From IMG/VR virus record IMGVR_UViG_2671180846_000026: a stretch of DNA of 4,217 bases. The stretch is one strand, 5' to 3'. Shown here piece by piece: positions 2,963 to 4,217 of this stretch. This stretch comes from a virus (lineage: Duplodnaviria > Heunggongvirae > Uroviricota > Caudoviricetes). The first letter of the stretch is position 1, and each line of letters starts with the position of its first letter. The notes below the pieces were generated by a model. That model did not search any database. It was not told the DNA's origin and was given only the letters and a program-made list of their open reading frames with translations. The position numbers were made by a program, and so were the translations under genes.

Positions 2963-3370
2963 ATGAAAAACGAAACCTTCGGTGCTCGCCTCTTATACAG
3001 GCGAAAAAAATTAAAACTGTCTCAGGCCGCATTAGGTAAGCTGGTCAAAGTGGCTCACGTAACAATTTCTCAATGGGAAAGAGATGAAACACAGCCAGCG
3101 GGGAAGAGATTATTCGCACTGAGCCAGGCGCTTCAGTGCTCGCCGACTTGGCTTCTTTTTGGAGATGAAGATAAGCAACCAGGCGAACCGATCCCAGATA
3201 ATCAGCCAGTCAATCTGACAGAAGATCAAAAAGAGTTGCTTCAACTGTTCGACGCACTGCCTGAGTCAGAGCAAAAGGCTCTGTTGTCAGAGATGCGTGC
3301 TCGAGTTGAGAATTTCAACAAACTTTTTGAAGAACTACTCAAAGCTCGCAAAAGAAGCGCAAATAAATAA
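2963..3370 (+). CDS. dicA: HTH-type prophage repressor, DicA-like (XRE-family HTH, no LexA-like S24 peptidase domain)
   Basis: 135-aa ORF, stop TAA at 3368..3370. HTH (LSQAALGKLVKVAHVTISQWERDE) and C-terminal segment (CSPTWLLFGDEDKQP...LPESEQ...EMRARVENFNKLFEELLKARKR) closely resemble recalled E. coli Qin-prophage DicA (also 135 aa), roughly 60% identical by eye. A homologue rather than K-12 dicA itself; symbol denotes family. Confidence 0.8.
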   Translation: MKNETFGARLLYRRKKLKLSQAALGKLVKVAHVTISQWERDETQPAGKRLFALSQALQCSPTWLLFGDEDKQPGEPIPDNQPVNLTEDQKELLQLFDALPESEQKALLSEMRARVENFNKLFEELLKARKRSANK

Positions 3371-3404
3371 CCCCCCTTTTTTTCGCAACTCTCTGTAATA
3401 AAAA

Positions 3405-3433
3405 GCACAAACTTTCAAATACTTGTGTTTTTT
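3405..3433 (+). terminator. Weak candidate intrinsic terminator downstream of the repressor gene
   Basis: Stem GCACAA (3405..3410) pairs with TTGTGT (3423..3428), five Watson-Crick pairs plus one G-T, 12-nt loop, followed by a T-run to 3433. AT-rich and weak. Confidence 0.2.
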
Positions 3434-3443
3434 ACATCAAGAA

Positions 3444-3461
3444 GCTTAGGTTTTTCTACGC
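3444..3461. promoter_or_regulatory. Operator-like site 3 (GCTTAGGTTTTTCTACGC)
   Basis: 14/18 identical to site 1 and 15/18 to reverse-complemented site 2. Immediately upstream of the -35 of the downstream promoter. Confidence 0.5.
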
Positions 3462-3468
3462 AAAAAGC

Positions 3469-3498
3469 TTGACCATAACTCTTAGGCTATTCTAAATT
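3469..3498 (+). promoter_or_regulatory. Putative sigma70 promoter for the downstream plus-strand operon (pL / dicBp analogue)
   Basis: -35 TTGACC (3469..3474), 18-nt spacer, -10 TAAATT (3493..3498). Flanked and overlapped by operator-like sites 3 and 4. Sits about 80 nt upstream of the 3578 start. Confidence 0.45.
3480..3497. promoter_or_regulatory. Operator-like site 4 (TCTTAGGCTATTCTAAAT), degenerate copy
   Basis: 12/18 match to site 3 including the CTTAGG half-site. Overlaps the spacer and -10 of the pL-like promoter. Confidence 0.35.
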
Positions 3499-3510
3499 CT
3501 ACTCATCAAG

Positions 3511-3524
3511 ACACCGCACGGTGT
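3511..3524. promoter_or_regulatory. 14-bp perfect palindrome ACACCG-CA-CGGTGT in the predicted 5' leader of the 3578 ORF
   Basis: Perfect inverted repeat seen directly. Just downstream of the predicted transcript start. Unrelated in sequence to the CTTAGG operator motif. Confidence 0.35.
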
Positions 3525-3577
3525 TCTCAGCAAACAGTTCCGCTACCCGGCGTTAAGGGGAAGCAGAGGATTTCTCA

Positions 3578-3934
3578 GTGGGCGAAGTCAAACATCAGAA
3601 TGGAAGGCGTCCAGGGATCAGCAAAGAAACAGCGATGGCGCTTTATATTGATATCAGCGCCATTGCCGGACAGGTAAGAATTATCAGAGCGGTAACTAAG
3701 CGGTATGCGCCTTTACTTCAGAAAGTCTCTGGTGAGTGCACCGAAGATATTGTCAACGATTTCGTCATCAAACTGCGAGGACTCATCTTCAGTTACAAGG
3801 TGACCACAATTTTTGCAGATGGCTCCCGCGAAACTGTCAGAGCCCTGCGGCTTAAAGGATGTGTCAAAGACTTAGCCACCACATTCTGGGCAAGAAAACT
3901 TGATTGTATTCATAACCAATTTCCTCTCGAGTAA
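3578..3934 (+). CDS. Hypothetical protein (118 aa from GTG; 99 aa if ATG at 3635), first gene of the putative repressor-controlled early-left operon
   Basis: Only long ORF in either strand over 3371..4005. GTG at 3578 preceded by AGAGGA with 7-nt spacer. Contains several rare Arg/Gly codons (AGA x4, AGG, GGA), typical of acquired genes. I do not recognise the protein. Confidence 0.5.
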   Translation: MGEVKHQNGRRPGISKETAMALYIDISAIAGQVRIIRAVTKRYAPLLQKVSGECTEDIVNDFVIKLRGLIFSYKVTTIFADGSRETVRALRLKGCVKDLATTFWARKLDCIHNQFPLE

Positions 3935-4005
3935 CAGACCCCTCAGAGGATACCACCTCGCCTGACGTGGTTAAAAGCAGGCAGCGCTAACCACAAGGAG
4001 CCGAC

Positions 4006-4217
4006 ATGCAGAAACGAGAACCCGTCATCATCGCGCCAGACTATACCGATGATGAACTTTATGAGTGGATGCACCAGAAAATTAAGGCAGCGCAGGACCT
4101 GAAATGGGCCAATGAAGCCAGGGCTAAGCAGGCTGAAAATCTGTCCGCTCTGGAGCAGGATATCACCAATCTGGAAAAAGCAGCGGCATTAAGCATTGCC
4201 AGAATGATTACATACCC
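4006..4217 (+). CDS. Hypothetical protein, partial (3' end beyond window); predicted helical/coiled-coil, N-terminus MQKREPVIIAPDYTDDELYEWMHQKIKAAQDLKWANEARAKQAENL
   Basis: ATG at 4006 preceded by strong SD AAGGAG (3995..4000, 5-nt spacer). Open for 70 codons to the window end with typical codon usage. Absent from the ORF track because no stop lies in the window. Confidence 0.6.
   Translation, partial: MQKREPVIIAPDYTDDELYEWMHQKIKAAQDLKWANEARAKQAENLSALEQDITNLEKAAALSIARMITY

Follow-up and report, generated by a model that had tools for sequence, protein, structure and literature searches.

The 4217-nucleotide stretch of a Caudoviricetes genome analysed here (IMG/VR record IMGVR_UViG_2671180846_000026; the whole stretch is called the window below) belongs to a lambdoid prophage, of which it forms the immunity and replication region. 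Its last 847 bp (positions 3371-4217) are best assigned to a dicBF-type early-left operon, as its promoter-proximal end, in a Qin-like lambdoid prophage with DicA/DicC immunity. At the place of the first cistrons the window carries a cassette composed of a forward open reading frame (ORF1) and, embedded in it on the opposite strand, a gene for a small zinc-ribbon protein. We consider it probable that the region joins the start of a dicBF-type operon to a mobile cassette that is read on both strands, with the zinc-ribbon gene dead in this copy. The start of the operon and YdfC are already known from dicBF; the noteworthy part is the first cistron, i.e. the two-strand mobile cassette. More tentatively, and as a possibility that we rate somewhat below an even chance, we propose that the cassette is an old, genuine antiparallel gene pair that moves as a unit among Enterobacterales prophages, its products belonging to opposite prophage states.

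The ORF1/zinc-ribbon cassette

The cassette and the antisense transcription unit within it are composed of the following features (SD, Shine-Dalgarno sequence; UTR, untranslated region):

3578-3934, plus strand: ORF1, the forward cassette gene (phrog_21318), 118 amino acids (aa) from GTG 3578 or 99 aa from ATG 3635
3913-3713, minus strand: zinc-ribbon gene (ECs_2282 family), antisense to ORF1 and contained in it over its whole length; 66 codons and a stop
3914-3946, minus strand: predicted antisense 5′ UTR with the hairpin CCTCT...AGAGG, whose 3′ arm includes the SD (GAGAGGAAA); ATG at 3913-3911
3947-3982, minus strand: predicted antisense promoter block, -35 TTAACC at 3974-3969, 16-nt spacer, extended -10 TGgTATCCT (-10 at 3952-3947)

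The intact zinc-ribbon allele, as present in EC22, scores 57.3 bits against NF047912 (cutoff 37) and carries the motif CPEC...CKNC. Over this ORF the window differs from EC22 at one base only, position 3874 (A in the window, C in EC22), which converts the GAA codon of the invariant Glu14 to TAA (3872-3874); all four Cys codons are present. The same base replaces a nearly invariant Phe of ORF1 by Leu, and both ORF1 and ydfC stay intact. The window copy of the zinc-ribbon gene is a pseudogene. Its stop allele, TAA-14, is carried by 11 of 11 PPompW phage records, and the IMG/VR sample has it at 20 loci; the gene is intact in three isolated phages and in most other loci.

Zinc-ribbon proteins of this type fall into 66 clusters across Enterobacterales and are 63-76 aa long. 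We distinguished three deep clades, namely E (the window type), S (the type of Klebsiella phage ST974-OXA48phi18.2) and K (the type of phage KP12), between which the proteins are ~30% identical, and further lineages from Pantoea, Rouxiella, Atlantibacter, Serratia and Yersinia. M1, K5, C8, C11, E14, C33, C36 and G37 are invariant across clades at 25-30% overall identity. A scan of GTDB species-representative contigs with the zinc-ribbon alignment returned only spurious matches. With its small size, its CxxC...CxxC pattern and its gene in a lambdoid early-left region, the zinc-ribbon protein is reminiscent of the Lar/RalR-type proteins of Rac-like prophages. However, the matches lie far under threshold (Lar TIGR03655, 15.7 bits, E = 0.014, cutoff 39.6 bits; phrog_6422, of Lar/RalR type, E = 0.0098, sub-threshold); the likeness is probably limited to the Cys knuckles, and the protein is not a member of that family.

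On the forward strand, ORF1 residues 20-118 match positions 1-99 of the 99-position phrog_21318 profile (E = 1.5e-66), and no match to ORF1 was found in Pfam, NCBIfam or PADLOC. Homologues down to 56% identity occur in Klebsiella and Citrobacter, and an exhaustive hidden Markov model (HMM) search of 1.84 billion representatives retrieved a small ORF1 family that includes diverged full-length members. The S-type forward protein also matches the K-type family phrog_29546 (E = 2.6e-8). Because the 19-codon GTG extension (3578-3634) is variable, with 4 synonymous vs 15 nonsynonymous polymorphisms, and is absent in distant homologues, the conserved core would start at ATG 3635 and comprise 99 aa, the start used by PHROGs and RefSeq. 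GTG 3578 occupies the ydfA start position of K-12 behind the leader SD, and is ATG in one variant. Across loci the ORF1 core measures 93-118 aa. An AlphaFold2 (AF2) model of ORF1 (predicted local distance difference test score, pLDDT, 68; moderate confidence) has the order helix-helix-helix-beta hairpin-helix.

The cassette was found in several genomic contexts: after the repressor gene in clade E, after a cro-like gene in Citrobacter and Klebsiella, after an N-peptide gene in Pantoea, Rouxiella, Atlantibacter and Yersinia, and near baseplate or tail genes in clade K and Serratia. In every one of them, ORF1 is co-directional with the local operon and the zinc-ribbon gene is opposed to it. The gene ydfC is also found with ydfA-ydfB or with other cassettes, and the ORF1 cassette is also found without ydfC. 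The fixed pair is thus ORF1 and the zinc-ribbon gene, not ORF1 and ydfC.

The antisense unit has a conserved anatomy of its own. In relatives the 5′ UTR hairpin is kept with changed arms (CTTGG/CCAAG, GCTGG/CCAGC, CCTTCTT/AAGAAGG). The -35 is covered by the inverted repeat GCCTG-N13-CAGGC (3982-3960), which is invariant in all clades that have the promoter block; it resembles the target site of a dimeric regulator and is unrelated to the TTAG-N6-CTAA operators described below. The block hardly varies among clade E, the Citrobacter, Klebsiella and Enterobacter loci and clade S, and it surfaced in megablast as an isolated 38-bp match to unrelated phages. In mEp460_ev081 (locus L004, 3082-3351) the same promoter/5′ UTR block precedes a different 66-aa minus-strand gene, phrog_34441, in the same operon slot. 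Because a different cargo gene follows the block there, the block seems to behave as a reusable moron 'socket'. Taken as a whole, the antisense unit has what can be recognized as moron anatomy: a promoter, a putatively regulated 5′ UTR and exchangeable cargo, facing the repressor gene and running against the early operon. The morons lambda rexAB and P22-type sieB are comparable in being small genes with their own promoter, located beside the immunity region and opposed to the early-left operon, and in the Enterobacter locus L015 the zinc-ribbon gene lies beside a SieB-family gene in the same orientation. Unlike these morons, the zinc-ribbon gene lies inside another gene rather than between genes; it has no sequence relation to Rex or SieB and no known exclusion phenotype.

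The two frames also compete in public annotation, which assigns one and the same locus to opposite strands in different RefSeq genomes. ORF1 is annotated in E2865, and a minus-strand 66-aa 'ECs_2282 family putative zinc-binding protein' is annotated at the same place in EC22. The NCBI Prokaryotic Genome Annotation Pipeline (PGAP; NZ_AP018808, NZ_CP060892) calls the forward 99-aa ORF if the zinc-ribbon frame has a stop, and the zinc-ribbon gene alone if it is intact. GenBank phage records always call the forward ORF, and PHROGs and most gene callers pick ORF1. The comparison exposes this as a systematic annotation conflict.

Evolutionary tests of the two strands

In the overlap, forward codon positions 1/2/3 face zinc-ribbon positions 3/2/1. 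The densities of change at zinc-ribbon positions 3/1/2 were.41/.18/.06 in clade E,.30/.19/.08 in clade K and.97/.55/.31 in clade S, which is the signature of coding on the zinc-ribbon strand. Changes in the overlap, pooled and sorted by their effect in the zinc-ribbon (Zn) and forward frames, were distributed as follows (observed/possible changes, rate):

Zn-synonymous, forward-nonsynonymous: 106/340, rate.312
Zn-nonsynonymous, forward-synonymous: 48/386, rate.124
nonsynonymous in both frames: 52/974, rate.053

Comparing the two forward-nonsynonymous classes (106/340 vs 52/974) gives an odds ratio (OR) of 8.0 (p = 1e-31) for selection on the zinc-ribbon frame, a result reproduced with transitions alone, with transversions alone and within every one of the three clades. 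This value is difficult to reconcile with the reading that ORF1 alone is real, and that the zinc-ribbon frame is an annotation artefact, a shadow ORF with chance CxxC pairs. Such an artefact would fit the facts that the frame runs against the operon, yields a poor AF2 model, and is broken in the window and in many O157-type prophages that retain ORF1. It leaves unexplained, however, why the four Cys, Glu14 and Gly37 should be invariant across clades at 25-30% identity, and why the frame should have its own conserved promoter, 5′ UTR hairpin, SD and ATG. Moreover, the ORF1 residues opposite CPEC go from FWAR to LRAG in clade K while CPEC stays. We regard this reading as very improbable.

For the forward strand, the first line of evidence is the openness of the frame. 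Of 20 lineage representatives (the lineages are related to one another), 19 have both frames open, as do all haplotypes of clades K (20) and S (43), and Pantoea, Rouxiella, Atlantibacter and Serratia, the Yersinia lineage being the exception. Within clade E no haplotype interrupts the forward frame, whereas the zinc-ribbon frame is interrupted in the TAA-14 allele and in one further, truncated allele (L102) but in no other. The exceptional Yersinia enterocolitica loci (L197/L198, ~2690-2800) present the reciprocal knock-out: the zinc-ribbon gene is intact and ORF1 is cut after 34 codons by a Zn-synonymous CTA Leu codon, an allele found on 23 contigs.

The second line is codon choice. Codons of the zinc-ribbon gene that would create a forward stop (TTA, CTA, TCA) account for 1 of the 143 Leu and Ser codons of the zinc-ribbon core in the 20 lineage representatives; usage in the long ORFs of the same loci predicts ~33, and E. 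coli-like usage ~20. An internal control in the same genes gave A-ending codons in 1/94 CTN and TCN vs 57/362 codons of the other four-fold families (p = 1.6e-5). Likewise, forward-stop-creating changes were seen in the overlap in 0 of 42 possible cases. Over all clades, Leu is encoded by CTC or CTT in 43 of 53 cases, with no TTG or TTA, and Ser by AGT in 32 of 90; Enterobacterales do not usually show this bias, which fits a codon choice governed by the forward frame.

The third line comes from the part of ORF1 that does not overlap the zinc-ribbon gene. Here, changes at codon positions 3/1/2 numbered 13/12/6, 20/10/10 and 43/29/21 by clade (total 76/51/37), and synonymous changes (58/199) exceeded nonsynonymous ones (107/605) with OR 1.9 (p = 8e-4; ω ~0.6). 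Alignment of the full-length forward proteins with hhalign gave P = 2e-6 (E-S), 5e-8 (E-K) and 2e-11 (S-K); the N-terminal non-overlapping 26-31 residues alone gave 4e-4, 6e-5 and 5e-4, in register. Between clades this segment keeps the motif L-x-I-D-x-S/T-x-I/V-x-x-Q/K-V/I.

Two readings that deny ORF1 a functional product have to be weighed against these results. According to the first, ORF1 is a mere shadow of the zinc-ribbon gene, the slot holds a single opposed moron, and the forward protein is not made. The substitution pattern of the overlap agrees with this in fitting the zinc-ribbon frame alone (E, K and S densities), as do forward amino-acid changes that accumulate there at a neutral rate and the omission of ORF1 from RefSeq wherever the zinc-ribbon gene is intact. 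In addition, the frame relation in which position 2 faces position 2 is the one known to yield long shadow ORFs. Yet a shadow should not avoid stop-making codons (1/94 vs 57/362; 1/143 vs 20-33 expected), nor should its non-overlapping part have forward periodicity with ω ~0.6 and remain recognizably homologous between clades whose zinc-ribbon proteins share ~30% identity. Finally, distant loci have an SD and a start codon at the conserved block's edge. We hold the shadow reading to be unlikely. Polymorphism within the E. coli clade had made a shadow ORF a candidate as sole explanation, which was dropped after the distant clades, the codon avoidance and the N-terminus conservation had been considered.

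According to the second reading, ORF1 is translated as a spacer: ribosomes covering it would block Rho-dependent polarity on ydfC-dicF-dicB, and the polypeptide would be functionless. A frame that is kept open although its amino-acid changes in the overlap look neutral, with ω ~0.6 outside, is what a spacer would leave behind, and ORF1 always runs with the operon around it. Against a spacer count the N-terminal segment, which is conserved as protein over deep divergence, the compact fold predicted by AF2 with moderate confidence, the maintenance of both frames in differing operon contexts (after N, after cro, near baseplate genes), and a length conserved at ~95-105 aa, for which a spacer has no need. 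In our judgement the spacer is a rather improbable explanation. Collectively, selection is demonstrated for the open forward frame and for the ORF1 N-terminus, not for the forward protein sequence inside the overlap.

Returning to the preferred reading, a two-strand cassette at the start of a dicBF-type operon, we propose that the derepressed transcript would run from the leader shared with Qin through the variable first-cistron slot into ydfC and, as in the nearest relatives, continue through dicF, dicB, ydfD and the recE-like exonuclease gene, with ORF1 co-transcribed with the early operon. The zinc-ribbon gene would be a moron-like unit whose own promoter drives its expression as long as the operon is silent; the SD-occluding 5′ UTR hairpin and the separate start codon would belong to this unit. 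Upon derepression, operon transcription would read through the zinc-ribbon gene in the opposite direction, and transcriptional interference together with sense-antisense RNA pairing may then yield the two products in alternative states. If this holds true, the sense-antisense arrangement would itself be the switch, e.g. for a defence, exclusion or toxin-antidote-like function tied to induction.

Several observations weigh against this reading. The state-switch mechanism is pure inference. In the overlap, the rate of Zn-synonymous/forward-nonsynonymous change (.312) is about that of forward-only synonymous change (.291); therefore, amino-acid constraint on ORF1 within the overlap is not detectable. 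A direct test of the forward frame inside the overlap (forward-synonymous vs double-nonsynonymous changes, OR 2.5) was rejected as confounded by zinc-ribbon positions 1 vs 2, and the forward-synonymous excess is lost when transversions are taken by themselves. In the E. coli clade, the rate of change of the forward-only part is about that of the non-coding DNA beside it. The lineages of the codon test are related, so that its p-values are optimistic. Each gene has been lost without its partner, the zinc-ribbon gene in the window and the PPompW prophages, and ORF1 in the Yersinia lineage. Lastly, AF2 modelled the zinc-ribbon protein poorly (pLDDT 52 with 7 sequences), too poorly for a structure search.

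One short segment stands out within the overlap. A core of ~27 nt within 3785-3815, covering zinc-ribbon codons 36-44 (CGHLVTEDE) and the ORF1 residues LIFSYKVTT, is free of synonymous change among 9 loci whose zinc-ribbon third positions differ by 32% outside it, and 3780-3808 has zero polymorphism among 26 E. coli-type haplotypes. This could be the site of strongest dual-coding constraint, an RNA or DNA element, or the product of recent recombination.

An earlier description of the ORF1/zinc-ribbon pair was not found, and a locus-tag search for ECs2282 and ECs_2282 gave no paper. The closest published parallels are the antisense overlapping genes of enterohaemorrhagic E. coli (EHEC) and Pseudomonas (ano, laoB, pop, asa, olo), which, going by the accessible portions of the reports, are likewise ORFs embedded antisense with their own promoter and SD (PMC5960689, PMC5810103, PMC7103648, PMC6294744, PMC9927249, PMC8850804). 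As far as those portions go, these are single-locus cases in chromosomal annotated genes that have RNA-seq and Ribo-seq support, whereas the cassette is known from sequence only. It also differs from these cases, as portrayed there, in that the embedded gene is the more strongly constrained partner, and in that both frames are kept over at least three deep clades and many genera in a unit that travels with mobile prophages. The three genes of PMC9927249 are stated to lie outside phage-derived regions. Whether bacteria have long antisense overlapping protein genes is still a matter of dispute (e.g. PMC7457138). The cassette offers a comparative test case here, since both frames are kept in many genera, with a curated HMM on one strand and PHROG families on the other. 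Natural knock-outs exist of each partner, of the zinc-ribbon gene in the window and of ORF1 in the Yersinia lineage. Taken together, these properties make the dual-coding question directly testable with simple genetics.

The dicBF-type operon around the cassette

Upstream and downstream of the cassette, the following features were delimited on the plus strand (the last line excepted, for which positions only are given):

2963-3370, plus strand: DicA-family repressor gene, 135 aa (NCBIfam NF007257)
3446-3459, plus strand: putative operator directly 5′ of the -35 hexamer (TTAGGTTTTTCTAC)
3469-3498, plus strand: predicted dicBp-type sigma-70 promoter TTGACC-18-TAAATT (consensus scan)
3482-3495, plus strand: putative operator over spacer and -10 (TTAGGCTATTCTAA)
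3504-3564, plus strand: 5′ leader common to K-12 Qin and phages of other immunity types
4006-4217, plus strand: ydfC, first 70 of 72 codons, cut by the window end (phrog_1744; annotated ydfC in relatives)
2897-2910, 2923-2936 and 2948-2961: three putative operator copies in the divergent dicC-like/dicA-like promoter region

We assign the region to a dicBF-type operon because of its DicA-family repressor, its dicBp-like -35 and leader, the identity of YdfC, and the dicF, dicB, ydfD and exonuclease genes downstream in relatives. In K-12, DicA represses dicBp (PMC10448788), and the transcript comprises ydfABC-dicF-dicB-ydfD, of which ydfA, ydfB and ydfC are without known function (PMC10448788, PMC5069750). 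The repressor of the window matches NF007257 with 241.6 bits (cutoff 101) and is 63% identical to K-12 DicA; the -35 of the promoter aligns with that of K-12 dicBp, as does the leader of ~60 nt (3504-3564) with the dicBp leader. The reading frame that begins at ATG 4006 is identical to K-12 YdfC at 68 of 70 residues (97%) and has no match in PADLOC.

Megablast of the 847 bp retrieved prophages PPompW of Shiga toxin-producing E. coli (STEC; 98.9% identity) and E. coli E2865 (99.2%), in which dicF and dicB lie ~1-1.4 kb past the position of the window end. The gene order of these nearest relatives is dicC | dicA, ORF1, ydfC, a 135-aa ORF, dicF, dicB, a ydfD-like gene and a recE-like exonuclease gene, with dicC annotated on the far side of the repressor, divergent from dicA; their dicF scores 76.7 bits against Rfam RF00039. 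Among 5,426 complete E. coli genomes, 926 hold at least 80% of 3371-4217 and 3,953 hold part of it, mostly ydfC.

Compared with the K-12 Qin operon (dicA | dicBp - ydfA ydfB ydfC dicF dicB ydfD), the window thus shares a DicA-family repressor directly upstream, a homologous -35 and leader, a 97% identical ydfC and, in its 99%-identical relatives, dicF, dicB and ydfD downstream. It differs in three respects. First, the two repressors share only 63% identity and their operators are of different sequence; therefore, immunity specificity would differ from that of K-12 Qin. Second, ydfA-ydfB are replaced by the ORF1/zinc-ribbon cassette with its antisense promoter: ORF1 sits between leader and ydfC, and a DUF1391 match is absent. 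Third, the relatives of the window have an extra ORF after ydfC, the 135-aa phrog_1363 (L001, 4878-5285), which lies between ydfC and dicF and is absent from K-12 Qin.

In the lysogen, the DicA-family repressor encoded next to it presumably silences the promoter at 3469-3498, as suggested by the operator placement and by the published work on K-12 dicBp. The operator motif was defined by repeat search and pattern search as TTAG-N6-CTAA with at most one mismatch. The 4217-bp window has five copies, with a chance expectation of 1.07 and five reached by 1 of 200 shuffles, and the copies are confined to the divergent repressor/cro promoter region (three) and to both sides of the 3469-3498 promoter (two). 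This agrees with the preliminary description of this DNA, which had placed a promoter downstream of the DicA-like repressor, an operator-like motif common to both promoter regions, and an early-left transcription unit with immunity-region operators at its promoter.

The leader can be divided into two modules, with mosaic breakpoints that recur at 3504 and 3537. The module 3504-3536 holds the hairpin ACACCG-CA-CGGTGT; the module 3537-3564 (GTTCCGCTACCC(C)GGCGTTAAGGGGAA) recurs in phages with other repressors, even at S-clade loci, and its 3′ end is the SD region used by whichever first cistron is installed. RNA folding of 3504-3564 was not significant (z = -0.37), and neither covariation nor an Rfam match was found for it; the Rfam scan of the whole window (E ≤ 1) likewise gave no match. 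A put/nut-like RNA in the leader was considered and is unsupported by the fold z-score and the absence of covariation.

In the alignment with K-12 Qin, divergence is exactly coextensive with ydfA-ydfB in K-12 and ORF1 in the window, with reconvergence at the ydfC start codon. In other phages that share this leader, the first slot is filled differently, e.g. by ydfA/ydfB-like genes or, in mEp460_ev081, by a 121-aa ORF with an antisense gene. The first-cistron slot is thereby recognizable as a site of swappable cassettes, which helps in reading such prophages; variable gene content around dicF has already been noted in published comparisons (PMC5069750).

These results alter the view taken in the preliminary description, in which the slot was merely 'equivalent' to the Qin dicB operon and held an uncharacterized two-gene module: the operon is of the same type, given its dicBp-like -35 and leader, YdfC, and the dicF/dicB of relatives. 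The second ORF does have the strong SD described for it (ATG 4006 behind AAGGAG) and runs off the window end; it belongs to a named family, YdfC, itself functionally uncharacterized, so that only the ORF1 half of the module retains its status. The 118-aa ORF at 3578-3934 (GTG) that had been assigned to no family is present and without known function, but has a family in phrog_21318, and it is conserved as a coding sequence. The antisense zinc-ribbon gene with its own promoter, broken in the window, had been overlooked.

The corresponding explanation, a novel two-gene host-takeover or anti-defence module that replaces the dicB operon or lambda N/kil/cIII, has hardly any probability left in our estimation. 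Its early-left position is confirmed, ORF1, YdfC and the zinc-ribbon protein are all without known function, and the S-type zinc-ribbon protein has a weak PADLOC match to the candidate defence protein PDC-M14A (E = 7e-6). Nevertheless, the second ORF is YdfC, the unit is the dicBF operon itself, and ORF1 and ydfC are not a fixed pair. Pfam matches to the lambda early-left families N_peptide, Lambda_Kil and Lambda_CIII were not found in ORF1 or YdfC.

Neighbouring features of the window

Two further features lie beside the operon:

minus strand: replication genes, cII/YdaT-like genes and a cro/dicC-like gene
3399-3434: A-tract, 12-nt inverted repeat and T-tract after the repressor stop (pair 3399-3410/3423-3434, 92% complementary)

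The element at 3399-3434 is a candidate weak bidirectional terminator. On the minus strand, a run of 49 N (masked or unsequenced) at 2674-2722 breaks the ORF 2200-2886; in relatives this region comprises a dicC/cro-like gene and a separate YdaT-family gene.

The repressor-proximal region also collects accessory genes. One E-type variant (L020/L021, 2031-2509) carries an inserted PaaA2-ParE toxin-antitoxin pair that separates ORF1 from the repressor gene, and a gene with an HSDR_N domain is located in the same neighbourhood in L017.

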